Source: Candidatus Omnitrophota bacterium (GTDB lineage: Bacteria > Omnitrophota > Gorgyraeia > JAHJTE01). From it: a DNA stretch of 64,000 nucleotides. Both the position numbers and the translations under genes were made by a program. The stretch is taken from NCBI GenBank assembly GCA_040753675.1, contig JBFMEB010000004.1:4288-68287 (forward strand). Reading direction: 5' to 3'. Shown in pieces: positions 2,126-38,407 of this stretch. Numbering within the stretch: the first letter of the stretch is position 1; every line of letters begins with the position of its first letter. The notes under the pieces were generated by a model. It was given only the letters and a program-made list of their open reading frames with translations, was not told the DNA's origin and made no database searches.

Positions 2126-2131
2126 GGTGAG

Positions 2132-3673
2132 TTATTCCCACTCAATTGTAGCAGGAGGCTTTGAGCTGATATCGTAGACTACGCGATTTACGCCCCTTAC
2201 CTCATTTATTATTCTGTTTGAAATCTTTTCTAAGAGTCTAAAAGAGAGTTTTGCCCAGTCCGCAGTCATACCATCTAGGCTAGTCACGCAGCGAATAGCC
2301 ACAACATTTTCATAAGAACGCTTATCGCCCATTACCCCGACTGTCTTTATAGGTAAGAGTACTGCAAATGCCTGCCAGATCTGGTGATATTTTTTTGCCT
2401 TCTTAATCTCCTCAATAACAATATCATCTACTTCTCTTAAGAGATCTAACCGCTCTTTAGTAACCTCGCCAATAATCCGTACTGCCAAGCCCGGCCCTGG
2501 AAAAGGATGCCGTTGCGCAATATGCTCTGGTAAGTCTAAAACCTTAGCAATCTCTCTTACTTCATCTTTAAATAATTCTCTCAATGGCTCAATAAGTTTT
2601 AATTTGAAATTTTTAGGTAAGCCTCCGACGTTATGATGGCTTTTTATCCTTGCGCTGGGTGAGCCGATAGGAGAAACAGATTCTATAACATCTGGATAAA
2701 GAGTTCCTTGGGCTAAGAATTTTGCATCTTTAAATTTTACTGCCTCTTTCGTAAAAACCTCGATAAATTCTTTGCCAATAATCCTGCGCTTCTGTTCAGG
2801 GTCAATCACTCCTTTTAATTTATCCAAAAATCTGCTTTGTTCATTTACAAAGTCAATATTAAGGTTGAGATTATCCTGGAATACTTCCTTAACCCTTTTT
2901 GCCTCATCCTTTCTTAATAGGCCGTTATCTACAAATATGCATTTTGACTTATTCCCAATCGCCTTATGCAATAGTAGAGCCAAAACCGAAGAGTCCACGC
3001 CGCCAGAGAGGCCACAGATAACCTCCCCCTCTTTAACTTTTTCTCTAATCTGGTTAATTGCCTCACTTACAAAAGACTCTATCTGCCAATTGCCACGGCA
3101 GCGGCAAATTTCAAATAGAAAATTTGCCAAAATATTTTTTCCCAAAGGGGTGTGCACTACTTCCGGATGGAACTGCACGCCAAAAATTTTATTTTTAGTG
3201 TTGCTGACAGCAGCAAATTTAGAATTTTTAGTGTGGGCGATTGACTTAAAATCAGGTGGTAATTTCTTTAAAGAATCTCCGTGGCTCATCCAGCATGTAA
3301 TTTTTTTTGGTATGCCCCTAAATAGACCCTTTGCATCATTTATAAAAAGTGTTGCCTTGCCATATTCGCGCTTAATTCCCTGATTAACCTCACCGCCTAA
3401 ATTCTGGCCGATTAATTGCATCCCGTAACAAATGCCTAAAATCGGTAATCTTAATTTAAAAATTCCTTTGTTTGGATGTGGCGAGCCTTTATCGTAGACG
3501 CTGGAAGGACCTCCGGAAAGAATAATGCCTTTAGGATTAATTTTGCGAATGGTAGAGACTGAGATATTGAAAGGGACAATCTGACTATAGACTTTAAGTT
3601 CTCGAATTCTACGAGCAATTAACTGAGTATATTGAGAGCCAAAGTCTAAGATAATGACGGTTTCACGCAACAC
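2132..3673 (-). CDS. guaA: GMP synthase (glutamine-hydrolysing)
   Basis: 513 aa with a GATase-1 N-terminus ([18 protein letters not shown]...CYGMQ) and an ATP-PPase motif (SGGVDSSV) followed by the GMP synthase C-terminal domain (PATIEWE end). Confidence 0.95.
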
Positions 3674-4846
3674 TTACTTTCCCATCCCTACGCGCTGCAC
3701 TGCCTGGAAAATTTTTCCTTCTGTCTGAATCGAGGGAGCAATGATTATTTCTACATCGTGCATCTGTTTTATATTAGCAGCACCTAGCGACCCCATAGAA
3801 GTAGCAAGAGCTCCCATTAAATTCTGAGAGCCGTCATCTACCTTTGCCGGCCCAAAAAGTATCTCTTCCAATGAACCAGCAGTGCCTACTTTGATCCGTG
3901 TGCCGCGAGGTAGGTTTATATTGCTTGTGGCCATGCCCCAATGAAATCCTTTTCCCGGTGCTTCCTTAGCCCTGGCAAAAGAAGAACCAATCATTACTGC
4001 ATCTGCGCCGCTGGCAAATGCCTTACAAATATCTCCTCCGGTACGCATACCGCCGTCACAAATAATAGCTATATATTTTCCAGTTCGCTTATAATAATAA
4101 TCTCGCGCTGCAGCTGCATCTATGGTTGAGGTTACCTGAGGCACACCAATTCCTAAAACACCTCGTGTGGTGCAGGCTGCGCCAGGTCCTATTCCGACTA
4201 GTACTCCAGCAATGCCAGTACTAAGTAGCTCTAAGGTAACTTCATAAGTAACACAATTCCCGAGTAATACTGGAACTCTCATACTTCTTACAAAGGCGGC
4301 AATGTCTAATGACTTATATGCCTTAGAAATATGGCGCACAGTGGTAACTGTGGACTGAACTACAAAAAAGTCAACCCCTGCTTCCTGAGATATCCTGCCA
4401 AAACGCTCTGCGTTAGCAGGCGTGCAACTCACTATTGCACAAACACCTTCTTTTTTTATCTGGCTTATTCTTCTGGAGATAAGTTTTTCTTTAATCGGCT
4501 CTTTATAAATTGCCTGAACTAATTTTGTTGCCTGTTCAGTGCTGGCTTTGGCGATTTTGCCTAAAACCGTAGCAGGATTTTCATACCTGGTCTGCACGCC
4601 TTCAAGATTTAAGACTGCTAAGCCACCTAACTTACCCATAGTAACGGCAAAATGCACATCAACCACGCCATCCATTGCTGCGGCGATAATTGGAACTTTA
4701 AATTTCTTGCCGTCTAATGTAAAACTGGTATCTACATCCTCTGGATTTATGGTTATTGTTCCCGGCGCTAAAGCAATTTCATCAAAGCCATAACAGCGCC
4801 GTGCTCGCCTTCCTATTCCAACCCATTCTGCCATATAATACCTCAC
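3674..4846 (-). CDS. guaB: IMP dehydrogenase family protein, short form lacking the CBS pair (catalytic Cys loop present)
   Basis: 390 aa TIM-barrel IMPDH fold with the catalytic loop GIGPGAACTTRGVLGIGVPQ and the motif GGMRTGGDICKAFASGADAVMIGS. Lies immediately upstream of guaA. Confidence 0.75.
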   Translation of the reverse strand: MRYYMAEWVGIGRRARRCYGFDEIALAPGTITINPEDVDTSFTLDGKKFKVPIIAAAMDGVVDVHFAVTMGKLGGLAVLNLEGVQTRYENPATVLGKIAKASTEQATKLVQAIYKEPIKEKLISRRISQIKKEGVCAIVSCTPANAERFGRISQEAGVDFFVVQSTVTTVRHISKAYKSLDIAAFVRSMRVPVLLGNCVTYEVTLELLSTGIAGVLVGIGPGAACTTRGVLGIGVPQVTSTIDAAAARDYYYKRTGKYIAIICDGGMRTGGDICKAFASGADAVMIGSSFARAKEAPGKGFHWGMATSNINLPRGTRIKVGTAGSLEEILFGPAKVDDGSQNLMGALATSMGSLGAANIKQMHDVEIIIAPSIQTEGKIFQAVQRVGMGK

Positions 4847-4907
4847 CTCGCTAATGACTATTTTTATTTAAAAAAACATTTTATCTGAAATCGTTAGTAG
4901 TGTCAAT

Positions 4908-4943
4908 TTAAAAAAAATAAGGGCGGGATTTCTCCTGCCCTTA
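4908..4943 (-). terminator. Rho-independent terminator downstream of groEL
   Basis: GC-rich hairpin AAGGGCGGGA-tttc-TCCTGCCCTT at about 4917-4942. It is followed, in the minus-strand transcript, by a run of U (plus-strand A-run 4908-4916). Confidence 0.6.
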
Positions 4944-4975
4944 TTTTTAGCTTTACGCTTTGCGTTTTTCGCTTT

Positions 4976-6607
4976 TTAATACATTCCTCCGCCCATTCCA
5001 CCAGGAGGCATTGCTGGCATAGCTGGCTTCTCCGGATCTGGTTTATCTGCCACCAAGCTTTCAGTAGTAAGTAAAAGCGCTGCAATACTGGAAGCATTCT
5101 GTAATGCAGAACGAGTAACCTTAGTTGGATCAATTACCCCTGCATCTATCATATCAACATATTTGTCCTGGTTAACATCATAACCCTCGTTAGTGGATAG
5201 TTCTTTGATTTTCTGCACAACCACCGAGCCTTCCAGCCCAGCATTAAAGGTAAGTTGGCGAACCGGCTCTTCCAAAGCGCGCTTAATTATATCCACGCCA
5301 ATCTTCTCATCGCCTTTAAGTTTCAATTCATCTAATGACTTAATTGTCCTCAGTAATGCAACGCCGCCGCCAGGGACAATTCCTTCTTCTTTAGCAGCTC
5401 TAGTAGCATGCAAGGCATCTTCTACACGGGCTTTCTTTTCTTTCATCTCGGTTTCCGTAGCTGCGCCAACGTTAATAACTGCTACTCCGCCGGCAAGTTT
5501 TGCTAAACGTTCCTGCAATTTCTCTTTATCATAATCAGAATCGCTAGTCTCAATCTGCTTTTTAATTTGAGCGATTCTGCCGTTTAAAGTGGAAGTTTTT
5601 CCAGCTCCTTCAACGATTGTGGTATTATCCTTGTCTATCTTCACTCTCTTTGCCTTGCCTAAATCATCTAAATTAACGTTTTCTAATTTTATGCCTAAAT
5701 CTTCGGTAATTGCCTTACCGCCGGTCAATATGGCAATATCTTCTAACATTGCTTTGCGTCTGTCGCCGTAACCAGGGGCTTTTACTGCCACGCAGTTTAA
5801 TGTTCCGCGAATCTTATTAACTACTAAGGTAGCTAATGCCTCACCTTCAACATCCTCGGCAATAATAAGCAAAGGTGAACCTATTTTGGCAATCTGCTCT
5901 AAAAGGGGCAATAAATCTTTTAAGGAGCTAATTTTTTTCTCATAGATAAGAATAAGCGGATTATCCAGAACGCATTCCATGCGCTCGGCATCAGTAACAA
6001 AATAGGGTGACAAATAACCTTGGTCAAATTGCATGCCTTCTACCAAGTCTAATGTAGTAGCCATTGATTTTGCTTCTTCTACGGTTATAACGCCATCTTT
6101 ACCGACTTTTTCCATGGCATCGGCAATTAAATCTCCGATAACCTTATCGCAGTTTGAGGCAATATAACCAACTTGTGCGACTTCCTTTTTATCCTTGATA
6201 TCTTTGGATAATTTTTTCAATTCCTCAATTACCCTTTCAACTGCCTTTTCAATGCCGCGCTTTAAAGCCATTGGGTTTGCGCCGGCAGTGACGTTTCTTA
6301 AGCCCTCTTTATATATTGCCTCAGCTAAAATAGTCGCGGTAGTAGTTCCGTCACCGGCAATATCCGAGGTTTTTTCTGCAACCTCTTTAACCATCTGAGC
6401 GCCCATATTTTCATAAGGGTCCTCAAGCTCGATTTCCTTTGCTACAGTGACACCGTCCTTAGTAATAGTTGGCGAACCGAATTTCTTATCCAGAATTACA
6501 TTTCTTCCTTTTGGTCCCAGGGTTACTTTCACTGCTGCGGATAATTGTTCTATACCGCGCAAAATAGCCTGCCGGGCTTCTTCTCTAAATGCTAACTGCT
6601 TTGCCAT
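4976..6607 (-). CDS. groEL: Chaperonin GroEL (Hsp60)
   Basis: 543 aa; [14 protein letters not shown]... with a C-terminal GGM repeat tail ([11 protein letters not shown]). Confidence 0.97.
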
Positions 6608-6620
6608 AATAATCCTCCTT

Positions 6621-6865
6621 TAATGAACAGATAATTTATGGAACGATAGTGACATAAATTATAGTCCCGAAGTTTCGGGACGTCTGTGAATTAAACCCCC
6701 ACACCATATTTTACAGAAAAAATTGGCTTTCAAATAAAACGTTTTTTTCGGATTCAACTTTTTATATTTAATATAAGACATCTTGGTAAAATTGGTGTGG
6801 GGGTAAATTTAACCATACAACTTAGCTTCACCTAATGCTTGTTCGCTAAGTTGTGGCTTCATTTA
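6621..6865. mobile_element. MITE-like repeated intergenic element, copy 1 of 3, inserted between groES stop and groEL start
   Basis: Shares its termini with the copies at 38408-38639 and 47909-48187: AATGA(A/G)CAGAYAAYTTATGGAA at one end and TTCCATAAGTTGTGGCYTCAYTTA at the other. These form imperfect ~16-bp terminal inverted repeats. The internal long stem uses a different, compensatory sequence here (AAACCCCCACACCATATTTTAC / GTAAAATTGGTGTGGGGGT). Confidence 0.6.
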
Positions 6866-7153
6866 CTTTATAATCGCCAGTATATCCTCTTCGCGCATAA
6901 TAATATATTCTTCGCCGTCTTTTGTGGTAATCTCGTTTCCAGCGTATTTTCCATATAATACCTTATCGCCAACCTTGACTTCTAATTTCGCAACTGTGCC
7001 GTTGTCTAAAATCTTGCCTTTACCAACTGCAATTACTTTACCTTCCTGCGGTTTCTCTTTTGCAGTATCAGGCAATACTATGCCGCCTTTTGTCTTGTTC
7101 TCTGCTTCTAATGATTTTATTACTACCCTGTCTCCTAATGGCTGTATATCCAT
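6863..7153 (-). CDS. groES: Co-chaperonin GroES (Hsp10)
   Basis: 96 aa; [44 protein letters not shown]. Confidence 0.95.
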
Positions 7154-7186
7154 TTCCTACACCCCCTTATTTTGCTTCGCAAAATT

Positions 7187-7277
7187 CACAGATTAGCACA
7201 GATTAAGGAGCGACAGATTAACACAGATAAAATTATCTGTGATCATCTGTATCTTTTAATCTGTGATTATCTGTGTG
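7187..7277. repeat. Palindromic repeat array: CACAGATTA x4 direct, then TAATCTGTG-type x4 in inverse orientation
   Basis: Read directly in the groES upstream spacer. Includes the near-perfect palindrome CACAGATAAAATTATCTGTG. Confidence 0.55.
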
Positions 7278-7288
7278 TCCTCACTTAA

Positions 7289-7315
7289 TTAGCACTCTTT
7301 TTTGTTGATTGCTAA
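7289..7315. promoter_or_regulatory. CIRCE-like HrcA operator upstream of groES
   Basis: TTAGCACTC-N9-GATTGCTAA, against the consensus TTAGCACTC-N9-GAGTGCTAA (one mismatch). It lies about 135 bp upstream of the groES start. Confidence 0.6.
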
Positions 7316-7345
7316 TATTACTGGAAAAAATATTTTACATAATTT

Positions 7346-8140
7346 TTAAATTTTGTCAAGCAAAATCTGAGCAAGTAAAGCAATGCCTCGCAAGGTCAAG
7401 GTCTGGTCTATAAAGTCGACACTTTTCTTTAAAAACGGTATCATTAATTTTGCATCCCCGCCAGTCAAAATTACCTTTGTATCTTTGCCTAAAATATGTT
7501 TTAATTCTCTAATCAGGCCTTTAATCATTAAAGAAGAACCAATCATTACTCCGCTATATATACTTTCACAAGTCTCTGTTCCAATAAGCTTAAATTTCTT
7601 ATTTGCTTTAGGTAATTGTAATTTGGGAAGTAAGGCTGTGCCTTTATCCAAAGCATCAAGGCTCAAATTTAAGCCAGGAGCAATTATACCTCCAAGATAT
7701 TCACCTTTCTTAGAAACAATATCAAAAGTAATTGCAGTACCCATATCAATAATAATTAGCGGCTTGCCATAGATTGTTTTGCCTGCAAAGGCATTGATGA
7801 GCCTATCCTCTCCAACTGATTTTGGTTTTTTGTATAGATTTTTTATAGGAACAATAAGATCCTTACCCAAAATCAATACCTTAATGTCAAAAGTTTTCTT
7901 TAACAATTTAGCTAAAGGATAATTCATATGCGGCACAACGCTACAAATTATTGCACTACTAGTTCTAAAGTGCCTTCTTTTTATTGATAAACCAAAGTGA
8001 GCAATATTCTCCTTAAGTCTTGAGCGACTAATCTTGGTAGGAATTCTAATTTGTGAAATCAATTTGTTGGCTTTAAACAGCCCTAAGTGAATACTGGTAT
8101 TACCTATATCTATGGCGATTATTATTAATTTATGTTTCAT
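7346..8140 (-). CDS. coaX: Type III pantothenate kinase
   Basis: 264 aa; IIAIDIGNTSIHLGLF at the N-terminus, GEDRLINAFAG, and the Fumble/CoaX fold motifs IIDMGTAITFD and LTGGDAKL. Confidence 0.8.
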   Translation of the reverse strand: MKHKLIIIAIDIGNTSIHLGLFKANKLISQIRIPTKISRSRLKENIAHFGLSIKRRHFRTSSAIICSVVPHMNYPLAKLLKKTFDIKVLILGKDLIVPIKNLYKKPKSVGEDRLINAFAGKTIYGKPLIIIDMGTAITFDIVSKKGEYLGGIIAPGLNLSLDALDKGTALLPKLQLPKANKKFKLIGTETCESIYSGVMIGSSLMIKGLIRELKHILGKDTKVILTGGDAKLMIPFLKKSVDFIDQTLTLRGIALLAQILLDKI

Positions 8141-8228
8141 ATTTTTAACGCTAATTCTCGCAAATGTAACGCGAATCTACGCTAATAAAATTAGCGATTA
8201 TTGGCGTGTAATTAGCGACTATTCGCGT
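8141..8228. repeat. Long imperfect palindrome built from ACGCTAAT / CGCGAAT motifs and their reverse complements
   Basis: Left half: AACGCTAAT...CGCAAAT...AACGCGAAT...ACGCTAAT. Right half: ATTAGCGAT...ATTAGCGAC...ATTCGCGTT. Same architecture and related motifs as 51181-51295. Confidence 0.45.
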
Positions 8229-11200
8229 TTAATTAGTTAACGCATTTCTCATTTCCTTAATCCTATCCCGCAGCTGGGCGGCGCGCTCAAACTGCAGGTT
8301 ACGCGCTGCTATAGTCATTTCTTTTTCCAAATCTGCGATTAAGAGCTCTTTTTCAAAATCCCGGCTATTTAAATCAACTGATTTTCTTAAGAGCTCTTCT
8401 GCCTCGTATTCTTTCTCAATGCCCTCAACAATGGCCTTTTTTATTGAGCGGGGAGTTATTTTATTGCGCTGATTAAATTGGATCTGTTTTTTTCTGCGGC
8501 GGCTACTTTCATTCATTGCCGAAGCAATCGAATCTGTTATTGTATCCGCATACATAATAACCGTTCCGTTGATATTCCGGGCTGCTCTACCCGCGGTCTG
8601 GATTAAAGTTGTCTTGGAGCGCAAAAAGCCTTCTTTATCCGCATCTAAAATTGCCACCAAGGAAACCTCGGGCAAATCCAGACCTTCCCTCAATAGGTTG
8701 ATACCCACCAAGCAATCAAATTTTTTCTTTCTTAAATCCCGCAATATCTGGCTGCGCGCAATTGTATCAATCTCTGAATGAAGATAGTTAACCTCCAATC
8801 CTTCTTCCTTAAGATAAGTGGAGAGATCTTCAGCCATTCGCTTTGTTAAGGTAGTTACTAAGGTTCGTTCAGACTTATCTGCCCTTGCCTTTATTTCTTT
8901 TATAAGGTCATCAACCTGACCAGTAGTTGGCCGGAGGATAATTTGTGGGTCAACTAGTCCGGTTGGCCTAATAATCTGCTCAATAATTTTACCATTAGAG
9001 TGCTTTATTTCAAAGTCAGCTGGCGTGGCTGAGACATAAATTGTTTGATTCATTAAGGGTAAAAATTCTTCGAATTTTAAAGGCCGATTATCCAGACAAG
9101 AGGGCAGGCGAAATCCGTATTCCACCAAAGTTTGTTTGCGAGATTTATCGCCTTCGTACATCCCTCTTATCTGAGGTACGGTTACGTGCGACTCATCAAT
9201 TATAGTTAAAAAATCAGAGGGAAAATAGTCAATAAGGCAATATGGCCGGCTGCCGGCTGGCCTACCTGATAAATGTCTGGAATAATTTTCAATTCCTTGG
9301 CAGTAACCTGTTTCTTTGAGCATTTCCATATCGTATTTTGTGCGCGTGGCTAATCTATGTGCCTCTAAGATTTTACCTTGTTCCTTCAATTCTAAGCACC
9401 TTTGTTTTAATCCCGCCTTAATCGAGACTAAGGCAGAATTTATTTGCTCATCAGCTACCATAAAATGTTTTGCCGGTAAGATAGAAATCCTCTCTAATCT
9501 TGAGATTACTTTAGAATTTAAAGGATCTAGGGTGAATAAAGCCCGGACATTTTCTAAATCCAGCTGGATTCGGTAAGCGAACTGCATATAGCCGGGAAAA
9601 ACATCAATAAAATCCGCCCGGATTCTAAAACTGCCGGGCTTAAAATCAAAATCATTACGCTCATATTGTAAGCCCACTAAATCTTGGGCTATTTTAATTT
9701 TATCGCATTTTTCGCCGATCTGGAAATTCAATATTGAACTCTTATATTCTTGGGGTGAACCCAAATTATATATACAGGAGACAGATGCCACTATTAAACA
9801 ATCGCGCCGGGACATTAAAGAGCTGGTGGCGCTAAGCCGTAGCCGGTCTAAGCGCTCATTAATAGAAGCGTCTTTCTCTATATAGGTATCGGTAGCCGGT
9901 ATATAGGCCTCCGGCTGATAATAATCATAATAACTGACAAAATATTCAACAGCATTCTGAGGAAAAAATTCTTTAAATTCAGTGTAGAGCTGAGCTGCCA
10001 AAGTTTTATTATGCGAAATAACCAAGGTTGGCAGATTTAGCTTTTCAATCACATTTGCAAGGGTAAAAGTATTATGTATAAATAAACCTCCCTGACCAGC
10101 TAAAAAAGTTTCGTTATCTTTTACGCTTATGTCGTATATGTAAGGTCGTTTATAGTCTAAGGGTTTTATTTCCACCACAGGCGTCCAGCGACAATTCGAC
10201 AACTTGCTAATCTCTTCGATTAACTGTTTAGCCAAAAGATTATTTTTGGAATACTTATCAAGTACCGCAATTATCTTTTTAAATGTCCTGACTTGCGGGT
10301 TACGAATACCTGATTCTATCATAGAAATAGCCGAACGATCTATCCCCGCCGCTTGCGCAATAATATCTTGACTGATTTTTAAAATATTACGTATTTGCCG
10401 CAGCTTTGGACCTACGCCAAAAATAAGGTCTAGATTATGGTGTGGATTACGCAAAATTTCGGTTTTTAGCTTATCCTGCTTGTCTTTTGAAATAAAACCT
10501 ATATTTTTGGCAAAAATTCTTAGATTTTCTTGATTGTAAAATGAAACTCTCCAATACCAGTCTCCTTTATGAGAAGAATTCAACGCTCTCTTAAAAACCT
10601 TCTTAACCCGTGCCCAGATACCAAAACGCAATAATGCATAGGCAATATCAGAGGCTAACTCTCTACTAGCCGTAGTCATGCTAACGCCCTTACCTCTTTC
10701 AATGGTGCCGTCACCATCAAAATATGCGCGTAAAAGCACTGCCAACTGCTTCTGGGATAAAGCAGGCCAAAACCCCGGCAATCTTTTATTTCTTGCATTT
10801 TTTCCCACTAAATTACAGATAAAAGAAGCTAATAATGAAGACGAAATCTGAAAGTCAGAATTTTTTCTTATTGAGTAACGAAAATTTAATCTCTTAAAAA
10901 TTGATTTTAATCTCTTTCTGGTTTTATTATCAAAAGACGTAATCAAAATATATTTATCTTCGCTATGCCCTTCGGCAATAAAGTATCCCAAGAAAGACAA
11001 TATATATTTATTTACCGATAGCATAGCAGATAAATATTGTCTAGAATTTGTTTTAGGAGTTATCTTGATTTTCCGCAATTGGGCATGATTCAATTTATAA
11101 TTGAATCTATCCAATAACACAGAAAAGACTTTAGCTGGAATCCTCTTTCCTTTTATCCCGCGAGATATACAATAAAGTTTATTATACCCACATTTAAAAT

Positions 11201-11876
11201 AACGAGAAAAGATGGTAACAATCTTATCTTTGCCAAATCTAAATATCAACTTTCTTAATAACTTTTCTGCCTCTAGATAAAATCTCTCGTTGTTGTGTAA
11301 ATATTCTAAAACAGGCACAAAAAGCAGATCTTCCTTCACCCGAGGCAACTCTTTAGGTAAAGGTATATAATCTGTATTTTTTATTTGCTCTGTGCGAATA
11401 AGCATCAACTTGCCATCTCGCAATACCCAAAAGTTATGGTGGGAGCTGACAATAATCTCTCTACCACACGATGTCGTCATCAAAAACATTTTTTTTGAGG
11501 ACTGATGACGGATAAAAGAGTTTATCGACTTTAGCTCTGATTTATAATTTTTGGGATTAAAACTTAAGGTATAATACCTAAGTTTTGACGAGGCAATAAT
11601 CTCTGCATGGCGAAATCGGGTTTTCTCTTTCTGATTTTGCTTTATAATTTCATCGATAAAGTCTCCTATTTTAACTAACGCCGCCGAGAAAGTGTTTTTG
11701 TCTGTCTTCTTAAATATTAAAATTTTTTCATCTCTATCTAGGCTTTTACCTGAACCCGTCACCCCCAAAAGCACTTGACTCTTAACGCCATTTTTTAAGT
11801 TATCCACTAACTTCTCAATCGCCTGGGGCTGATCACCGCAAGGCTTAAAATTGGATACTAATTTGAATTTATCCAT
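8229..11876 (-). CDS. uvrB: Excinuclease ABC subunit B interrupted by a 558-aa intein in the P-loop
   Basis: N-extein ends ...LLGVTGSGK. C-extein starts TFTLANVIEKLN...AAQLYTEFKEFFPQNAVEYFVSYYDYYQPEAY and is 613 aa by my count. The exteins are collinear with UvrB, including the C-terminal UvrB/UvrC interaction region. Confidence 0.9.
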   Translation of the reverse strand: MDKFKLVSNFKPCGDQPQAIEKLVDNLKNGVKSQVLLGVTGSGKSLDRDEKILIFKKTDKNTFSAALVKIGDFIDEIIKQNQKEKTRFRHAEIIASSKLRYYTLSFNPKNYKSELKSINSFIRHQSSKKMFLMTTSCGREIIVSSHHNFWVLRDGKLMLIRTEQIKNTDYIPLPKELPRVKEDLLFVPVLEYLHNNERFYLEAEKLLRKLIFRFGKDKIVTIFSRYFKCGYNKLYCISRGIKGKRIPAKVFSVLLDRFNYKLNHAQLRKIKITPKTNSRQYLSAMLSVNKYILSFLGYFIAEGHSEDKYILITSFDNKTRKRLKSIFKRLNFRYSIRKNSDFQISSSLLASFICNLVGKNARNKRLPGFWPALSQKQLAVLLRAYFDGDGTIERGKGVSMTTASRELASDIAYALLRFGIWARVKKVFKRALNSSHKGDWYWRVSFYNQENLRIFAKNIGFISKDKQDKLKTEILRNPHHNLDLIFGVGPKLRQIRNILKISQDIIAQAAGIDRSAISMIESGIRNPQVRTFKKIIAVLDKYSKNNLLAKQLIEEISKLSNCRWTPVVEIKPLDYKRPYIYDISVKDNETFLAGQGGLFIHNTFTLANVIEKLNLPTLVISHNKTLAAQLYTEFKEFFPQNAVEYFVSYYDYYQPEAYIPATDTYIEKDASINERLDRLRLSATSSLMSRRDCLIVASVSCIYNLGSPQEYKSSILNFQIGEKCDKIKIAQDLVGLQYERNDFDFKPGSFRIRADFIDVFPGYMQFAYRIQLDLENVRALFTLDPLNSKVISRLERISILPAKHFMVADEQINSALVSIKAGLKQRCLELKEQGKILEAHRLATRTKYDMEMLKETGYCQGIENYSRHLSGRPAGSRPYCLIDYFPSDFLTIIDESHVTVPQIRGMYEGDKSRKQTLVEYGFRLPSCLDNRPLKFEEFLPLMNQTIYVSATPADFEIKHSNGKIIEQIIRPTGLVDPQIILRPTTGQVDDLIKEIKARADKSERTLVTTLTKRMAEDLSTYLKEEGLEVNYLHSEIDTIARSQILRDLRKKKFDCLVGINLLREGLDLPEVSLVAILDADKEGFLRSKTTLIQTAGRAARNINGTVIMYADTITDSIASAMNESSRRRKKQIQFNQRNKITPRSIKKAIVEGIEKEYEAEELLRKSVDLNSRDFEKELLIADLEKEMTIAARNLQFERAAQLRDRIKEMRNALTN
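10071..11744 (-). mobile_element. Intein (Ser1 ... His-Asn, +1 Thr) with a LAGLIDADG homing-endonuclease core and an internal HTH
   Basis: Inserted between GSGK and TFT of the Walker A motif. Two LAGLIDADG-like motifs (LGYFIAEGHS and LLRAYFDGDGTI), an XRE-type HTH (ISQDIIAQAAGIDRSAISMIESGIRNP), and a C-terminal ...LFIHN followed by T. Boundaries computed from my residue counts. Confidence 0.8.
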
Positions 11877-11934
11877 ATTTATTTACCCAGTTAGAAAACC
11901 TCGTCCCGTTAGAAACGAAATTTTCTAACGAGAT
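11877..11934. repeat. GTTAGAAA direct repeats followed by inverted copy (CGTTAGAAA-cgaaat-TTTCTAACG)
   Basis: Read directly in the spacer upstream of uvrB. Confidence 0.45.
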
Positions 11935-13119
11935 TTACTTTGCTTGGAAATCTTTCCAGTGGTAGGGTTTTGTCTGATAAGGTCGTTTGAGACTCTGGAT
12001 AGGCCGACCAGGACCAACTACGTCATCTTCTAAATCAATCCGTGCAAGATATGATCCATCTAACTTACTTTCCAAAAACCAGTTACCCGGAAAGGAAATA
12101 CCAACTTCATGCACACCAATAGTCTTCGGAATTTGTGCTGATACAATAGGCATCATCGCTTGCGCTCTTGGGTCAAGATTAGACGATAATCCTATAAACT
12201 GTCCAGAAGCATTGTTTAAAAAGCCACTTAAGGAATAACTCCCCTGTGTATCAAAAACCTCTACTTCAACCAGAATATTCAATGCTTCAAACTTTCCATT
12301 ATTATCAACGTCAGCCGCTACTTCCCTCACCTTGCCTGTTAAACAAGCTGTTTGTTTAGACGCATAAACTTGTGTCCAACCAATACGCTGGAAGGTCTTT
12401 GTATCTGTGGCGTTGATGTAAATTGTATACTGGTCTGGTCTATCAAACTTCAGGGTAGCAGTATAAATACCGTCGTCTAAAACAAGGTCGCCATCTAACG
12501 CGTTATCCTTAAATATAAGCTCTTGTTCTTTATTAGTATTAAAAGAGCTTGATTTACCTGTTACTGATGCTTTTAAACATGGTTGGCCATGTTTCCTTAA
12601 TCTTACTTCAATGCGCACAGGTTCACCTAATCTAATTAATTGAATCGGCGGAACTTGCAGCATATAATCTGGTTTTTCTGATGAAATATTAATACTGTAA
12701 TTAGTTATTTTCTCTCCCTTGGCCAGATTTAATTCAATCCGCCAAAGACCCGAAATAGGCCTGTCGAAAACGAGTGTATGAGACTTCATACCCTTGCCCT
12801 TGGCAGTGATTTTTTCTATCCTAATAGAATAATCTGATGATAGATCTGTTGGATCAATGCGTCTGCCATCAGGTAGAATAAAAACTACCTTTACTTTGCC
12901 AAGGTCAAATCCAAAAGAGGGTCCAAAAGAAAGCAAGCCGCTGGTGACACTAACTCTTATACGTAACTGCGAAGCCGGATCAACAAGAAATTGATGTACA
13001 ATTGTCTGGTCAGGTAAAATCTTACCACTTATCTCTGCAATTTGTTCAGCAAATACTAATTTAGGCGTCAAAAAAAATAGAATGTTTAACAAAAATAAAA
13101 TACTTAATTTTTTGTTCAT
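11935..13119 (-). CDS. Secreted hypothetical protein (signal peptide, beta-rich)
   Basis: 394 aa; N-terminal MNKKLSILFLLNILFFLTPKLVFA signal peptide. No recognisable catalytic motif. Confidence 0.5.
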   Translation of the reverse strand: MNKKLSILFLLNILFFLTPKLVFAEQIAEISGKILPDQTIVHQFLVDPASQLRIRVSVTSGLLSFGPSFGFDLGKVKVVFILPDGRRIDPTDLSSDYSIRIEKITAKGKGMKSHTLVFDRPISGLWRIELNLAKGEKITNYSINISSEKPDYMLQVPPIQLIRLGEPVRIEVRLRKHGQPCLKASVTGKSSSFNTNKEQELIFKDNALDGDLVLDDGIYTATLKFDRPDQYTIYINATDTKTFQRIGWTQVYASKQTACLTGKVREVAADVDNNGKFEALNILVEVEVFDTQGSYSLSGFLNNASGQFIGLSSNLDPRAQAMMPIVSAQIPKTIGVHEVGISFPGNWFLESKLDGSYLARIDLEDDVVGPGRPIQSLKRPYQTKPYHWKDFQAK

Positions 13120-14000
13120 TTTATCCCCCTGGTAACAATCTCTAAAGCAAGATTAACGGCTTTGGCAGAATGGGTTAAACTACCTACAGAAATTAAATCT
13201 ATTCCAGTTTTAGCTATTCTTTCAACATTTTCTAAATTTACGCCGCCAGAAACCTCAAGAAGTGTTTTACGAAGCGATAAATCATTTCTAATTCTGACCG
13301 CCATTCGTATTAAATCGACATTGAAATTATCTAACATTATAATATCAGGTCTTGCTTTTAATGCTGCATTAAATTCACTTAAATTAGCTACCTCAATCTC
13401 TACTATTTTGCCTTTTGCATTTTTCCTCGTAGAATAAATTGCCTCTTTAATAACCTTCTCTTTAAAGTTATCGCTCTTTAGTAATAACCTAAGATGATTT
13501 GTCTTTATTAAAACTGCTTCAGAGAGACTCTTACGGTGATTAAAACCTCCCCCTACGCGCACAGCATATTTCTGTAAAGTTCTTAGTCCAGGTATCGTTT
13601 TACGGGTATCCAGTATTTTTACGTTATTAGGATAAACTCTTCTAACAAACTCATGGGTCTGGGTAGCAATTCCGGAAAGATGCGACAGGTAATTAAGCGC
13701 GACTCTTTCTGCAGAAAGTATTGCCCTGGCCTTGCCAAAGATACTTAAAACCTTTGTATTCTTCTTTATCTGGTCCGCGTCGCAATAATAAGCTTTAAAA
13801 TTTATTTTTGGGTCAATTGTTTTAAAAGTGCTCTTGACTAAAGAAAGTCCAGCTAAAATGCAGTCTTGCTTAACGATTATATCTGCGCGCACCTTTAAAT
13901 TAGCCTCAATTAAGTTTTGTGTAGTTATATCAGAGAACGCAGCATCTTCTTTTAAGGCAGCTTTAAGAATATTTTTAAAATCAGCTTGCTTTAAGTGCAT
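13116..14000 (-). CDS. nadC: Nicotinate-nucleotide pyrophosphorylase (quinolinate phosphoribosyltransferase)
   Basis: 294 aa; EDAAFSDITTQNLIE..., ILDTRKTIPGLR, and the C-terminal TIM-barrel part (IMLDNF, VEVSGGVNLENV). Confidence 0.85.
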   Translation of the reverse strand: MHLKQADFKNILKAALKEDAAFSDITTQNLIEANLKVRADIIVKQDCILAGLSLVKSTFKTIDPKINFKAYYCDADQIKKNTKVLSIFGKARAILSAERVALNYLSHLSGIATQTHEFVRRVYPNNVKILDTRKTIPGLRTLQKYAVRVGGGFNHRKSLSEAVLIKTNHLRLLLKSDNFKEKVIKEAIYSTRKNAKGKIVEIEVANLSEFNAALKARPDIIMLDNFNVDLIRMAVRIRNDLSLRKTLLEVSGGVNLENVERIAKTGIDLISVGSLTHSAKAVNLALEIVTRGIK

Positions 14001-16731
14001 CGAGAATCCTTTTTAATTTCTCCAAACTATTTTTATTAAATTCTAACTTTTCTTTTTGGGCATCCACAACCTCCTGAGGCGCTTTTTTTAAAAATTCATT
14101 ATTCCTTAGCTGCTTATCTATACCTAAAATTAAGCTATTTAGTTCAATCTTTTTCTTTTCAATTCGCTTAATTTGCTCTACAACATCTCCTAAGTCTGAT
14201 AAGGGCACATAAATACTAAAACCTGCTTCTACGTCGGCAATTGCTTTTTGGGGTTTTTCAGCACTTTGCTTAAAAGTTACTGAACTAGATTTTGCCAAGA
14301 TTTTAAATTTATTAGCTAGACTTTGCAAAAATTCACAATCCTCTTTAGCCCCTCCTACAATTTGGCACTCAATTAATTGCGAAGGCGCTAAGGATAGCTT
14401 AGCTCTCAAATTCCTGACTCGGCTGACTAAAGAAATAAATTTGTCAAACTGAGCTTCCAATTCTAAATCAACAAATTCTTTTTTGTAAACTGGATATTGA
14501 GCTATCATTATTGAACCTGCTCTGCTGGAGAGTCGAGAGAATATTTCTTCGCTGATAAACGGCATAAAGGGATGTAATAATTTTAAAAACTCAACTAAAC
14601 AATATATTAGAACCGATTTTGTAATCTGGCGGTGAGGCAGACAATCATCTTTTGCCATTTCAATAAACCAATCGCAAAATTCATGCCAGAAAAATTCATA
14701 TAATAGCTTAGAACTTTCATTAAAATCAAAATTATCTAATGCAGCAGTTACATTTTTAATCGTCCTATTTAGCCGACTTAAAATCCAACGCTCCTGAATA
14801 TTTAATTCTTCGCTTTTTAGGGCAGGCAAGGCATCTACTTTAAAATTCATTAATATAAATCTAGAGGCATTCCAAATCTTGTTGGCAAAATTTCTGCCCA
14901 TCTGAAATTTTTCGGCCGATAAGAAAACATCCTGGCCGGTTGCAGTTATCGACACTAAACTAAACCGCAATGCGTCAGCCCCGAATTGCGAGATAATTTC
15001 CAATGGGTCAATAACATTGCCTAAAGACTTTGACATCTTCTTGCCTTCAATATCCCTGACCGTACCGTGGATGTAGACATTGCGAAAAGGCACATCTGCA
15101 ATGAATTCCAATCCAGCCATAATCATACGTGCTACCCAGAAGAAAATTATTTCTGGCGCCGTAACTAATACAGAAGTTGGATAGAAATACTTTAGGTCTT
15201 CTTCGTCTCTCGTCTCTCGTCTCTCGTCTCTCGTCTCAAACGGCCAGCCAAACGTAGCAAAAGGCCATAACCAACTCGAAAACCAAGTATCCAACACATC
15301 TTCATCCTGGACAATGTTACTGCCGCTGCAATTCGGGCATTTTTCCGGCTTTATTTTCGAGACAATGATTCCCTTTTTGTTTACAGTTGGCTGTTTACTG
15401 TTTACAGTAAAAGATTTTTCTGTTAACTGTTCACTGTTAACTGTACACTCGTTTGCCTGTTTTAAACAGTCTTTACAATAATAGACAGGCAAACGATGTC
15501 CCCACCAAATCTGGCGTGATATACACCAGTCTCCAATATTTTGCATCCAATTTAAATAAACCTTTCGCCAGCGAGATGGATGGAATTTAATTTTGCCTTT
15601 CTTTACCGCCTCTATTGCCGGTTTTGCCAAGGGTTTCATTTTCACAAACCATTGCTTTGATAAATATGGTTCAATTATAGTGTGGCATCTATAGCAATGG
15701 CCAGCGGATAAAGGATAATCTACTATTTTTTCTAAGTTTCCCCTTGTCTTTAAATCCTCTAAGACAATCTCTCTCGCTTTAAATCTGTCTAAGCCGCAAT
15801 ATTTACCAGCATTGCCATTCAAAATTCCATCTGGCTGCATAATATTTATGAATTGGAGATCATGCTTTTTCCCTAATAGATAGTCGTTATGATCATGGGC
15901 CGGCGTTACCTTAACCGCTCCTGTTCCAAACTTCATATCTACCATATTATCAGCAATTATTTTTATTTCTCTATTTACTAAAGGCAGAATCAGGGCTTGA
16001 CCGATAAACTTTTTATAACGTTTGTCTTTTGGGTTAACTGCAACCGCGCTATCACCCAACATTGTCTCAGGCCGAGTAGTAGCAACTACTATAAACTCTC
16101 TTTTATTTTCTTTGAAAGGATACTTTAAATAATAAAGATGTCCGCGTAACTCGCTATGCGGCGCCTCTTCATCTGAAAGAGCAGTTTGACATCGAGGGCA
16201 CCAATTGATGATATAATCACCCTGATAAATTAAACCCTTGTCGTAAAGGCGTGCGAATACCTCGCTGACCGCTAGAGAATAGCCTTCGTCCAGGGTAAAA
16301 CGAGTCCTCTCCCAATCACAAGAAGCGCCTAATTTTTTAAGTTGATTTATAATAGTTGTGCCATATTGTTTCTGCCAAACCCAAACCATCTCTAAGAATT
16401 TTTCCCTACCCAACTGCTGGCGCTTAAGGGACTCTTTTGCAAGTTGTCGCTCAACCACATTTTGAGTAGCAATGCCAGCATGGTCGGTTCCCGGCATCCA
16501 GAGAGCCTCTTTATTTTTCATACGCTGATAACGAATAAGAATATCCTGAATTGTATTATTTAGGGCATGTCCCATATGCAGTATTCCCGTGATATTAGGC
16601 GGAGGGATAACTATAGAGAATGGTTTTTTTGAAGGGTCAGGCTTTGCGCTAAATAGATTATTGGCCTGCCAGAAGCTATACCACTTATCCTCTACTTCTT
16701 TAGGATTGTATTGCTTAGATAGTTCATCCAT
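13981..16731 (-). CDS. valS: Valine--tRNA ligase
   Basis: 916 aa; HMGHALNNTIQDILIRYQRM (HIGH region), KMSKSLGNVIDP (KMSKS), and a C-terminal coiled coil. Contains two low-complexity insertions encoded by tandem heptamer repeats. Confidence 0.95.
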   Translation of the reverse strand: MDELSKQYNPKEVEDKWYSFWQANNLFSAKPDPSKKPFSIVIPPPNITGILHMGHALNNTIQDILIRYQRMKNKEALWMPGTDHAGIATQNVVERQLAKESLKRQQLGREKFLEMVWVWQKQYGTTIINQLKKLGASCDWERTRFTLDEGYSLAVSEVFARLYDKGLIYQGDYIINWCPRCQTALSDEEAPHSELRGHLYYLKYPFKENKREFIVVATTRPETMLGDSAVAVNPKDKRYKKFIGQALILPLVNREIKIIADNMVDMKFGTGAVKVTPAHDHNDYLLGKKHDLQFINIMQPDGILNGNAGKYCGLDRFKAREIVLEDLKTRGNLEKIVDYPLSAGHCYRCHTIIEPYLSKQWFVKMKPLAKPAIEAVKKGKIKFHPSRWRKVYLNWMQNIGDWCISRQIWWGHRLPVYYCKDCLKQANECTVNSEQLTEKSFTVNSKQPTVNKKGIIVSKIKPEKCPNCSGSNIVQDEDVLDTWFSSWLWPFATFGWPFETRDERRETRDEEDLKYFYPTSVLVTAPEIIFFWVARMIMAGLEFIADVPFRNVYIHGTVRDIEGKKMSKSLGNVIDPLEIISQFGADALRFSLVSITATGQDVFLSAEKFQMGRNFANKIWNASRFILMNFKVDALPALKSEELNIQERWILSRLNRTIKNVTAALDNFDFNESSKLLYEFFWHEFCDWFIEMAKDDCLPHRQITKSVLIYCLVEFLKLLHPFMPFISEEIFSRLSSRAGSIMIAQYPVYKKEFVDLELEAQFDKFISLVSRVRNLRAKLSLAPSQLIECQIVGGAKEDCEFLQSLANKFKILAKSSSVTFKQSAEKPQKAIADVEAGFSIYVPLSDLGDVVEQIKRIEKKKIELNSLILGIDKQLRNNEFLKKAPQEVVDAQKEKLEFNKNSLEKLKRILDALKAS
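15203..15237. repeat. Perfect heptanucleotide tandem repeat (TCGTCTC)x5 inside valS coding sequence
   Basis: Read directly. Encodes ETRDERRETRDEE inserted before the conserved YFYPTSVLVT segment. A second imperfect array (CTGTTAA/CTGTTCA/CTGTACA) at about 15380-15470 encodes TVNSEQLTEKSFTVNSKQPTVN. Confidence 0.8.
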
Positions 16732-16790
16732 GTTTAATCTTATTAGTGAATATTATGATTTTTGGTAGGCCTTTAAAAGAAAAAAGATAA

Positions 16791-18404
16791 TCAGGTATTA
16801 TTAATCTTATCCTTAATGAGTTTATACTCCACGCTATCGACTAACGCCTGCCAGCTCGCTTCAATAATGTTCTCAGATACTCCCACTGTGCCCCAAGACT
16901 CTTTTTCATCCTGCGATTGAATTAATACCCGCACCTTTGCTGCGGTACCAGATTTTGCGTCAAGCACTCGCACTTTAAAATCTGTCAAGCGCATCTTGGA
17001 TAGTGACGGATAAAAGCCTTTAAGCGATTTCCTTAAAGCATTATCTAAGGCATTGACCGGGCCATCGCCTTCAGCCGTGGTATGTTCCTGAACTTCATTC
17101 ACTTTTAATTTAATTGTCGCTTCGCTAACTAATTTGCCGTGCTCTTTTTTCTCGATAATAACCCGAAAGCCCTCTAAATGGAAAAATTGTTTATATTTCT
17201 TAAATGCCTTCTCTAAAAGTAAGGCAAAGGAGCCGTCTGCGGCCTCAAATTGATATCCTTTATGCTCTAGGTCCTGGATAAGTTTTAGTAACTGTTTTGC
17301 TTGGGGCGACTTTTTATTAAGATCAAACTCTAATTCCTTAGCTTTGATTACCAAAGGAGTTTTACCTGCCAACTCCGAGACGAGAATTTTTCGAGAATTC
17401 CCAACTCTCTCTGGCTCGATATGCTCATATGTCTTGGGATTTTTCATCATTGCATCTATGTGCACGCCACCTTTATGAGCAAAAGCGCTATGGCCCACAA
17501 AAGGAAGATTATCTGGATGTTTGATATTAGCTACTTCGCTAATAAACCTAGCCACTTCAGTAAGTTTTTTAAGCTGGCTGTCACTAATGCAATCAATATT
17601 TAACTTCAATTGAGCTATTGCAATTATCGCACAAAGGTCAGCATTGCCGCAACGCTCACCTAAGCCATTAAAAGTTCCCTGGACTTGAAGACATCCTGCC
17701 TGGATTGCCGCGATTGAGTTAGCCACCGCTAAACCCATATCATTATGAGTATGAATTCCTAACGGTAGACTAATGATATTTTTAACGTCGTGAATAATCT
17801 TAATCAAATCCGAAGTGAGGGTTCCCCCGTTCGTATCGCAAAGAACGATTACGCTTGCACCAGAAGAGGCTGCGATACGCAAAGTTTCTAACGCATAAGT
17901 ACGATTTGATCTATAGGCATCGAAGAAGTGTTCGGCATCATAGAAAACTGTAAGTTTCTTGGAAACCAGAAATTTAATACTGTTTGAAATTATTTTAAGA
18001 TTATCCTCTAAGCTCACTTTCAGCACATCTTTAACATGCAGATCCCAAGATTTACCGAATATGGTAACTGTTTTTGTGCCCGCATCTACTAATCTGACTA
18101 AATTCTCATCAGTGCTTGCCTTTTTATCTACCCTATGTGTAGAGCCAAAGGCAACTAACTGGCTAAAGGCCAAAGGGTGTTTCTGGAAATATTTAAAAAC
18201 TTCTCTATCTTTAGTATTAGAAGGCCAACCTGCTTCAATGTAATGGATGCCTAACTCGTCCAACACAGAGGTAATTCTAATCTTATCTTCCAAAGAAAAG
18301 GAAACTCCCTGTGTTTGAGCGCCATCGCGCAATGTCGTATCATAAAGCATTAATTGTTTTAAGCTCATCGAATTCCTCTTTTTTATAATAATAGGGCGTC
18401 GCAA
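16791..18404 (-). CDS. 2-isopropylmalate synthase / (R)-citramalate synthase family protein
   Basis: 537 aa; N-terminal DTTLRDGAQ HMGL-like TIM barrel with HTHND, plus a C-terminal LeuA dimerisation/regulatory domain. Confidence 0.8.
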   Translation of the reverse strand: MRRPIIIKKRNSMSLKQLMLYDTTLRDGAQTQGVSFSLEDKIRITSVLDELGIHYIEAGWPSNTKDREVFKYFQKHPLAFSQLVAFGSTHRVDKKASTDENLVRLVDAGTKTVTIFGKSWDLHVKDVLKVSLEDNLKIISNSIKFLVSKKLTVFYDAEHFFDAYRSNRTYALETLRIAASSGASVIVLCDTNGGTLTSDLIKIIHDVKNIISLPLGIHTHNDMGLAVANSIAAIQAGCLQVQGTFNGLGERCGNADLCAIIAIAQLKLNIDCISDSQLKKLTEVARFISEVANIKHPDNLPFVGHSAFAHKGGVHIDAMMKNPKTYEHIEPERVGNSRKILVSELAGKTPLVIKAKELEFDLNKKSPQAKQLLKLIQDLEHKGYQFEAADGSFALLLEKAFKKYKQFFHLEGFRVIIEKKEHGKLVSEATIKLKVNEVQEHTTAEGDGPVNALDNALRKSLKGFYPSLSKMRLTDFKVRVLDAKSGTAAKVRVLIQSQDEKESWGTVGVSENIIEASWQALVDSVEYKLIKDKINNT

Positions 18405-18548
18405 AAGCTCCGCCCTTGATTACATTGATTAAATTGTAGATTACGCAGATTAAAAACATCTTCTGCTTTTTTATCTGTGTAATCTTTTTTTAAAATCTGT
18501 GTAATCATAGGCTGGAACGTTTTTTAGTGACAGCCTTTTTAAAATAAG
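18405..18548. repeat. Palindromic repeat spacer (GGGCG..CGCCC hairpin; CGCAGATTA direct then ATCTGTGTAATC x2 inverted; GGCTG..CAGCC hairpin)
   Basis: Read directly between the lysC stop and the leuA-family start. Same architecture as the groES upstream array. Confidence 0.4.
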
Positions 18549-19805
18549 TTAGCGCAGCTTATTCAACCCAAATTTAGAATGTAATACCCGCATTGCCCGA
18601 TTGGCATGCTTTTTCTTAATAATACAGGATATGCTTATCTCGCTGGTAGAAATCATTTCGATATTAATTTTTTCTTTTGCCAATATTTCAAACATCTTCG
18701 CTGCTACGCCCGGATAAGACTTCATCCCTACGCCAACAAGAGAGACACGCGCAATATCCTCATCACTAATACAATCGCCTGCGCCAATCGACGCTGCCAC
18801 GTTTCTGGCAATCCTCATTGCCTTGGGTAATTCATTTTTAAAAACCGTAAAGGAAATATCTGTAGCTCGAGTGCGGCTAACATTTTGAACTATCATGTCC
18901 ACATTAACATCTGCACTGGATATGCGTTTAAAAAGTTTTGCCGCTATGCCCGGCCTATCTGGAACATCGCAAACAGTAATTTTTGCCTCTCCCTTATTTA
19001 AAGTAATTCCTCTGATTAGGGCATCTTCCATCTCGCCTACCTCCTTAATCTTCAAACTCTTTAAATCAGAAATAGATTTTGCAATATACGAGCCGTCATT
19101 TTTATGAAACGAGGAACGCACATGAATCGGAACATTGAATTTCTTAGCTACCTCAATCGAGCGTACTTGCATAACTTGTGCGCCCAAAGAAGCTAACTCC
19201 AGCATCTCATCATAATTAATAAATGATAATTTTTTTGAGTCTTTTACAATTCTCGGATCAGCAGTAAATATACCTTCTACGTCAGTATATATCTCGCACA
19301 TATCTGCATTAAGCGCTTTTGCCAAAGCCACCGCAGTCAGGTCTGAACCGCCACGGCCTAAGGTAGTGATATCGTTCTCTGAAGTCACTCCCTGAAAACC
19401 AGCAACTATGACAATGTAACCTTGCGCCAAGTGTTTATTGATTCTGCGGGAATCAATTTTTAAAATGCGTGCTCTAGTATGATGCCGATCAGTAACAATG
19501 CCTACTTGCGAACCAGTTAAAGACAATGCTTTAAAACCCAGTTTGTGTATCGCCATTGCCAGAAGTGCGACAGAAATCTGCTCACCGGTAGAAAGCAACA
19601 TATCCATTTCTCGTTCCGAAGGATTGGTATTAATCTGGCTGGCTAAATCCACCAATTCATCGGTAGTATCCCCTAAAGCAGACACAACTGCCACAACATT
19701 GAAATTTTTCTTTTTATATTCCACCACGCGCCGGGCAACGCGCTTAATCCTCTGGGGATTAGCAACAGAAGAGCCGCCAAATTTTAAAACCACTAATTTA
19801 TGCAT
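18549..19805 (-). CDS. lysC: Aspartate kinase
   Basis: 418 aa; VLKFGGSSVANPQRIKRVA, an amino-acid kinase fold, and two C-terminal ACT domains. Confidence 0.9.
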   Translation of the reverse strand: MHKLVVLKFGGSSVANPQRIKRVARRVVEYKKKNFNVVAVVSALGDTTDELVDLASQINTNPSEREMDMLLSTGEQISVALLAMAIHKLGFKALSLTGSQVGIVTDRHHTRARILKIDSRRINKHLAQGYIVIVAGFQGVTSENDITTLGRGGSDLTAVALAKALNADMCEIYTDVEGIFTADPRIVKDSKKLSFINYDEMLELASLGAQVMQVRSIEVAKKFNVPIHVRSSFHKNDGSYIAKSISDLKSLKIKEVGEMEDALIRGITLNKGEAKITVCDVPDRPGIAAKLFKRISSADVNVDMIVQNVSRTRATDISFTVFKNELPKAMRIARNVAASIGAGDCISDEDIARVSLVGVGMKSYPGVAAKMFEILAKEKINIEMISTSEISISCIIKKKHANRAMRVLHSKFGLNKLR

Positions 19806-23227: not shown

Positions 23228-23387
23228 TTACATTTAGGTTACTATTAGTTACTAACAGTTTCTAATAAAAATTCAAAAACAACGAATCGGTTACTAACAG
23301 TTACATTTTTGCAACCAATAGTAACTATTAGTAACAAACTCAGCATCTTGCTTCCCCATTTGCTTTAGTAACCATTAGTAACTATTA
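23228..23387. repeat. Operator-like repeat array: GTTACTA(A/T)(C/T)AGTTAC x2 direct, then TAGTAAC(T/C)ATTAGTAAC x2 inverted
   Basis: Read directly upstream of coaB and downstream of thrC. Overall dyad symmetry centred near 23305. Confidence 0.5.
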
Positions 23388-27144: not shown

Positions 27145-27184
27145 AGCAACCTCTATTTAAACAATTAAGAAATCAATTTTCAAA

Positions 27185-27259: not shown

Positions 27260-27328
27260 TGATTTGCTAGCTATTTTCTATCGGCAAATCATCCCGAGTC
27301 CCAAAACTTCGGGACGAGGGATTAATTT

Positions 27329-28318: not shown

Positions 28319-28320
28319 AA

Positions 28321-28716: not shown

Positions 28717-28790
28717 TTTAGAACCTATTGTTTAAAACTTTATGACAATTTAGCATAACTTTATTATTATAGATAAGTTATGAACTGTTT

Positions 28791-38404: not shown

Positions 38405-38407
38405 TTC

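Follow-up and report, generated by a model that had tools for sequence, protein, structure and literature searches.

A 64,000-nucleotide stretch of a Candidatus Omnitrophota genome (contig JBFMEB010000004.1; hereafter the window) carries on its minus strand a uvrB gene whose Walker A P-loop is interrupted by an intein of 558 amino acids (aa). We consider it highly probable that the insert is a complete homing intein, that is, a class-1-type, cysteine-free splicing element (Ser1/Thr+1) in which a LAGLIDADG homing endonuclease is nested. The inteins that occupy this site in UvrB form a large family that has been little described; within it the present copy is divergent but otherwise ordinary. 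The gene is made up as follows.

8229..11876, minus strand: uvrB precursor open reading frame (ORF), 1215 aa including the intein (ORF list; NCBIfam UvrB equivalog PRK05298).
11745..11876, minus strand: N-extein, UvrB aa 1-44; its end, LLGVTGSGK, supplies the first part of Walker A.
10071..11744, minus strand: intein, 558 aa, precursor aa 45-602, from Ser1 to His557-Asn558.
8229..10070, minus strand: C-extein, spliced-protein aa 45-657 and the stop codon, starting with the Walker A Thr, the predicted +1 splicing nucleophile.

The product of the whole ORF scores 999 bits against PRK05298 (cut-off 743), in two stretches that flank the insert, and 991 bits against a second NCBIfam model, TIGR00631 (cut-off 750); Pfam recognises the UvrB_inter, Helicase_C, UvrB and UVR domains. 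The intein begins SLDRDEK and finishes GGLFIHN, and the C-extein resumes at residue 603 with TFTLANVIEK, so that the insertion point lies between Lys44 and Thr45 of the UvrB Walker A motif, GSGK/T (here and below, a slash marks a junction). With the insert removed, the 657-residue protein matches Bacillus caldotenax UvrB (2fdc_A) in a single stretch (aa 3-652 against 4-655, E 1.6e-255). The junction is crossed without a gap, reading ...GSGKTFT... in the spliced protein and ...GTGKTFT... in 2fdc_A. The first-pass annotation of this DNA had staked its claim in advance on the alignment of the exteins to an intein-less UvrB, and that alignment is contiguous. It had also placed a 558-aa intein at 10071..11744, joined the exteins as GVTGSGK/TFTLANV, and read Ser at the start of the insert, His-Asn at its end and Thr behind it; these coordinates and residues are all correct.

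The family to which the intein belongs was found in a scan of genomes, one per species, which returned at least 177 stretches encoding a relative, spread over about nine phyla. The best 80 of the 177 were examined (tblastn of intein aa 1-558, E 3e-133 to 1e-57). A ...HN/T followed by UvrB sequence is readable in 78 of these 80 loci and both junctions in 70, always as G[ST]GK/S...HN/T. The bacterial hosts are Chloroflexota, Bacteroidota, Cyanobacteria, Gamma- and Betaproteobacteria, Patescibacteria, Bipolaricaulota and Acidobacteriota, to which a few archaea are added; named members include Nibrella viscosa JCM 17925 (a cultured member of the Bacteroidota), Thermoflexus, Anaerolineae, Steroidobacteraceae, Patescibacteria and Bathyarchaeota. 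Across the 71 aligned inteins from which our conservation counts are taken, S1, H103, Y537, D538, H557, N558, D345 and G346 are invariant, and the Omnitrophota copy has all of them as well as E258 and K320. The nearest neighbour lies in another phylum for 12 of the 70 inteins for which it was counted, and in several cross-phylum pairs the similarity of the inteins equals that of the far more constrained exteins, which points to horizontal spread. We found no description of a UvrB-site intein family in the searchable literature. The Walker A loop is a known hot spot for inteins (DnaB site b, MCM site a and RFC-S site a; Novikova et al. 2016, PMC4760082), and UvrB does not appear among the 15 proteins that this survey found to host inteins most often in bacteria. 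We note that four archaeal genomes carry an intein at the same UvrB site (L070, a closed Bathyarchaeota chromosome, OY970280.1; L058; L060; L050), and that the similarity of these archaeal inteins to Patescibacteria inteins is about the same as that of the exteins (0.45-0.48).

In the close relatives of the host the site is empty. Each of the 120 best relatives found for the spliced UvrB (89-65% identity) is an intein-free protein of 653-671 aa, and those that are named are Candidatus Omnitrophota. Taken with the cross-phylum neighbours, such a sporadic distribution is what a homing element would be expected to show. The nearest intein-free UvrB (P0173 on the relative L081) is 89% identical at the amino acid level and 85% at the nucleotide level; its uvrB is uninterrupted at the site, the amino acid context is the same as in the Omnitrophota exteins, and the empty site, GTTTTGTTAGGCGTTACTGGTAGTGGTAAA/ACCTTTACTCTGGCGAATGTAATC, is a candidate homing target. 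Compared with this allele, the exteins have a ratio of nonsynonymous to synonymous substitution rates (dN/dS) of 0.085 at a dS of 0.78; the value describes the extein only, the intein and its helix-turn-helix having no relative close enough for the same calculation. The extein is under strong purifying selection, from which it follows that UvrB has been kept functional, and as the gene is split in the P-loop, splicing is required. We therefore suggest that the intein most likely splices. The split P-loop makes it a sound prediction that the precursor cannot bind ATP before splicing. The most diverged 20-codon window with respect to the nearest empty allele is uvrB codons 21-40 (11757..11816, minus strand), just upstream of the intein; Gln34 of the Omnitrophota UvrB is Leu in its seven closest relatives. 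This divergence may be a co-conversion tract left by homing; we have not adopted it as one, the segment being variable among UvrBs generally and the signal only suggestive.

The intein divides into the following parts, numbered by intein residue.

11355..11744, minus strand: N-terminal Hint segment, aa 1-130, holding Ser1 and block B S100-S-H-H103 (TIGR01445 intein_Nterm; phmmer).
11025..11354, minus strand: helical domain, aa ~131-240, between the N-terminal Hint segment and the endonuclease (secondary structure in models).
10491..11024, minus strand: LAGLIDADG homing-endonuclease domain, aa 241-418 (Pfam LAGLIDADG_3; Foldseek).
10962..10991, minus strand: LAGLIDADG motif 1, LGYFIAEGHS, aa 252-261, with the catalytic Glu258.
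10701..10736, minus strand: LAGLIDADG motif 2, LLRAYFDGDGTI, aa 337-348, with the catalytic Asp345.
10194..10439, minus strand: accessory domain with an XRE/Cro-C1-type helix-turn-helix, aa 436-517, between the endonuclease and the C-terminal Hint segment.
10257..10403, minus strand: Pfam HTH_3 (PF01381) match, aa 448-496, 39.5 bits against a cut-off of 23.
10071..10193, minus strand: C-terminal Hint segment, aa 518-558, with Y537, D538, H557 and N558 (TIGR01443 intein_Cterm).

The splicing domain is recognised by Pfam Intein_splicing (E 1.6e-17) and by the two NCBIfam models, TIGR01445 and TIGR01443, both above their cut-offs, while phmmer matches the N-terminal Hint segment to the PI-PkoII, TFIIB and KlbA inteins. 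Blocks F and G are present (YIYDISV...FLAGQGGLFIHN), with the block F Asp and the terminal His-Asn. An AlphaFold2 model of the intein, built on 21 sequences, has a predicted local distance difference test score (pLDDT) of 92.5 and a predicted template modelling score (pTM) of 0.91, and in this model the predicted Hint fold is matched by Foldseek to the mini-inteins of TFIIB, RadA, CDC21 and KlbA with probability 1.00. Block B (Thr-x-x-His) retains His103, and at position 100 the Thr is replaced by Ser in the Omnitrophota copy only (1 of 71). The whole triplet before the invariant His is Ser-Ser-His here (aa 100-102; 11436..11444, minus strand; likewise 1 of 71) and Thr-Gly-Asp in other family members. 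A separate observation concerns Cys93 (11466..11468, minus strand), which is present in 70 of the 71 family members although a Ser1/Thr+1 intein has no catalytic cysteine.

The two LAGLIDADG-like blocks reported by the first-pass annotation are supported by the Pfam LAGLIDADG_3 match (E 9.5e-21). Motif 1 reads LGYFIAE258G and motif 2 LLRAYFDGD345G, each helix ending in a catalytic acid. The modelled domain shows a pair of alpha-beta-beta-alpha-beta-beta-alpha folds and is matched by Foldseek to PI-TkoII, TliVMA, PI-PfuI, I-DmoI, I-Tsp061I and I-SceI. Within the family, E258 is found in 67 of 71 members and G259 in 68, D345 and G346 in every one, and the nearby Lys320 (in NKRLP) in 70. The helical domain that precedes the endonuclease is the most variable region of the family (24% pairwise identity); modelled alone, it has a pLDDT of 87.8 and finds no significant fold match in the PDB or BFVD. 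It occupies the position at which archaeal eRF1 inteins hold an XRE helix-turn-helix.

Behind the endonuclease, the XRE-type helix-turn-helix is secure as a domain assignment: in addition to HTH_3, the profile HTH_19 exceeds its cut-off (33.3 bits against 30.2), and phmmer matches the accessory domain to C.AhdI, C.BclI and SinR. In the AlphaFold2 model the domain consists of five helices (aa 445-455, 459-466, 470-478, 485-498 and 503-517), the third being the recognition helix, and Foldseek superposes the helix-turn-helix part on C.BclI (2b5a, TMt 0.69) and SinR (3qq6, root-mean-square deviation 1.0 over 54 columns). Its presence had been called unusual for an intein, and this is the part of the first-pass annotation that does not stand. 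HTH_31 is detected in 62 and HTH_3 in 61 of the 71 inteins at the UvrB Walker A site, and E477, R481 and P483, kept in 70-71 of the 71, are intact in the Omnitrophota copy. The helix-turn-helix is a trait of the UvrB-intein family, not an oddity. Among the inteins of other host proteins that come closest, those of archaeal MCM and HerA also have HTH_3 behind the endonuclease, and it precedes the endonuclease, after the N-terminal Hint segment, in archaeal eRF1 inteins (P0020, P0023 and P0024, aa ~306-360). Because the domain occupies two different positions among inteins, before the endonuclease in eRF1 and behind it in UvrB, MCM and HerA, we suggest that it was captured independently more than once.

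Accessory domains of this general kind have been described by Beyer and Iwai: every archaeal endonuclease-bearing intein with a solved structure has one, placed after the endonuclease and before the C-terminal Hint segment (PMC8966425). In their crystal structures the accessory domains of TliVMA, itself a P-loop intein, and of PI-TkoII resemble helix-turn-helix DNA-binding proteins, that of TliVMA being compared with the 434 repressor, a member of the XRE family, and swapping accessory domains alters DNA cleavage by VMA inteins (PMC8966425). The same work proposes that inteins capture accessory domains from transcription factors (PMC8966425). The UvrB-site family, whose accessory domain can be recognised as XRE from its sequence, lends sequence-level support to that idea.

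Among characterised inteins, the closest is PI-TkoII (PI-PkoII), the second intein of the Thermococcus kodakarensis DNA polymerase (2cw7), which ranks first both by sequence (E 1.3e-23) and by fold when compared with the intein model (Foldseek E 1.3e-29, TM 0.65/0.67). Its parts follow in the same order, with an extra domain after the N-terminal Hint segment, then the LAGLIDADG endonuclease, and a helix-turn-helix-like accessory domain before the C-terminal Hint segment (PMC8966425). It differs in being archaeal, in its host (a family-B polymerase, not a P-loop) and in sequence (identity ~19%); its accessory domain cannot be recognised as XRE from the sequence, and its extra domain before the endonuclease has no Foldseek match to that of the Omnitrophota intein (E 1.7). 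TliVMA, from the V-ATPase A subunit of Thermococcus litoralis (VMA-b site, 7qss), is likewise a P-loop intein and combines Hint, a LAGLIDADG endonuclease and the 434-repressor-like accessory domain before the C-terminal Hint segment (PMC8966425; Foldseek E 9.5e-23, TM 0.59/0.74; identity 17%). Its host protein and domain of life are different, and its structure lacks an extra domain before the endonuclease. PI-PfuI (1dq3) is also among the best structural matches of the whole model. The P-loop inteins of replicative helicases and clamp loaders share the Walker A insertion and the Thr at +1 and differ in host protein. Among the nearest relatives outside UvrB are the inteins of archaeal RNA polymerase subunit A'' (PRK14898, NCBIfam match E 1.1e-42; Asgard P0011, P0013 and P0016; E down to 9e-24). 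These too start with Ser and are followed by Thr, but they have no detectable HTH_3 after the endonuclease and their host is not a P-loop nucleoside triphosphatase. The UvrB Walker A family itself shares with the Omnitrophota copy the insertion point, Ser1/Thr+1, the domain order, the helix-turn-helix and the conserved residues, and differs from it in block B, as described above.

The sequence establishes the anatomy, the exact restoration of UvrB, the membership of the family, the conservation of the catalytic residues and the purifying selection on the extein; splicing, endonuclease activity and binding of the homing site by the helix-turn-helix are predictions from it. We propose the following course of events. 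The 1215-aa precursor would be translated with a split P-loop and would not bind ATP. The Hint domain (aa 1-130 and 518-558) would carry out an N-O acyl shift at Ser1, and the N-extein would be moved onto the hydroxyl of Thr+1; cyclisation of Asn558, followed by an O-N shift, would yield a normal 657-aa UvrB in which GSGKT is whole again and would set the 558-aa intein free. The intein would then act as a site-specific endonuclease that cuts intein-less uvrB where it encodes the P-loop, a highly conserved sequence, and the element would spread (homing) when the break is repaired from the copy that carries it. The XRE helix-turn-helix most likely adds contacts to the DNA flanking the cleavage site, and the helical domain before the endonuclease may do the same.

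Some observations weigh against this account. The Ser-Ser-His of block B could slow the first splicing step. In the one experimental precedent the accessory domain reduced cleavage specificity and did not raise it (PMC8966425). Lastly, the intein stands far from its relatives: none above about 40% identity was found in two protein collections, the species-representative genomes or metagenome contigs. It is at most 39% identical to any family member, where 40-49% is typical, and Omnitrophota is a phylum absent from the 80 examined loci. In these sequence comparisons the Omnitrophota intein represents an otherwise unsampled, deeply divergent lineage of the UvrB family. The identities of extein and intein to the Omnitrophota copy show no correlation (r 0.10), and the donor lineage therefore cannot be named. 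We also considered a recent foreign origin on the grounds of composition, the GC content being 34.4% in the intein against 40.3% in the extein. This was rejected: at third codon positions (GC3) the intein (0.333) equals the genome mean (0.337), so it did not arrive very recently from a donor of different composition, and the low overall GC reflects an amino acid composition rich in K, N, I, F and Y, not a lack of amelioration.

The same features leave room for a different reading, in which the intein splices and the endonuclease is inactive, a fixed remnant late in the homing cycle whose helix-turn-helix has no present function. The long branch of this copy, the block B substitutions unique to it and a GC3 that suggests long residence in a genome of such composition would all suit a remnant. 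However, the two catalytic acids (E258 and D345) and Lys320 are intact, as are E477, R481 and P483 of the helix-turn-helix; the 558 codons of the intein contain no stop codon or frameshift; and the empty sites in the close relatives of the host mean that homing targets still exist. We think an inactive endonuclease unlikely, though it deserves to be taken seriously, and prefer a homing intein whose endonuclease is predicted to be active.

Could the helix-turn-helix instead serve the host? The excised intein might act as a repressor or activator (for example of uvrB), or DNA binding might control splicing and make the activation of UvrB conditional. I-TevI also acts as an autorepressor. The domain is a bona fide XRE/Cro-C1 domain that resembles SinR and the controller proteins C.AhdI and C.BclI; it is kept in most UvrB-site inteins; and uvrB is immediately preceded by a strong hairpin or inverted repeat. 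For RadA and DnaB, the splicing of P-loop inteins has been documented to be conditional (PMC4513877, PMC6195587). Yet nothing ties the upstream repeat to the intein, and the presence of the same domain in inteins of unrelated hosts (MCM, HerA and eRF1) fits better with DNA targeting by the element itself. Moreover, XRE regulators normally bind palindromes as dimers, and the domain shows no evident means of dimerising. We regard a host-level role as very improbable; if it were true, a selfish element would have become a post-translational switch on UvrB and nucleotide excision repair across many bacterial phyla.

Still less credible is that the insert does not splice and that uvrB has been inactivated and is becoming a pseudogene. 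Only 64 kb of the genome is in view, so a second uvrB could exist elsewhere, and the block B Thr has become Ser in this copy only. Every splicing residue is present, however, and Ser retains the hydroxyl of Thr; the spliced protein matches solved UvrB structures with E values down to that given above for 2fdc_A; and the extein dN/dS is not that of a gene in decay. An assembly chimera or sequencing artefact can be dismissed almost outright: the exact protein has no record in a large public gene index, but the insert keeps the reading frame precisely and occupies a canonical intein site that at least 70 other genomes also use, its GC3 agrees with that of the host, and the flanking gene order (leuA-valS-nadC-uvrB-coaX-groEL-guaB-guaA) is conserved in relatives.

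Several features of the neighbourhood deserve record. Between nadC and uvrB lies an orphan ORF (11935..13119, minus strand; 394 aa) whose N-terminus resembles a signal peptide and whose product finds no match in Pfam; in L081 and L082, the two closest relatives, there is only a spacer of ~20-110 nt at this place. Just upstream of the uvrB start codon, the 58-nt spacer holds a strong RNA hairpin (~11885..11934, minus strand) with a folding energy of -24.5 kcal/mol (z -5.9), which none of the shuffled sequences reached. Its stem is a 9-bp inverted repeat without mismatch, CGTTAGAAA/TTTCTAACG, and it might serve as an attenuator, as an operator or as the terminator of the orphan ORF. The valS gene (13981..16731, minus strand) encodes 916 aa against 883 aa in the relative L082, and its product has short internal repeats (TVNSEQ.../TVNSKQ..., ETRDERRETRDEE). 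Across the window (1..64000) all 47 long ORFs of the composition comparison are on the minus strand, as are its five tRNA genes (Pro, Gly, Tyr, Thr and Met); the plus strand has only two ORFs of at least 150 aa, both overlapping minus-strand genes.

For annotation, the 1215-aa product should be recorded as an intein-containing UvrB, neither a fusion nor an error. A cysteine-free Ser1/Thr+1 intein could interest protein engineers, and a lone divergent intein amid empty sites would be a good natural test case for homing range. More broadly, UvrB hosts a large allelic intein family, which includes a copy in the cultured Nibrella strain.

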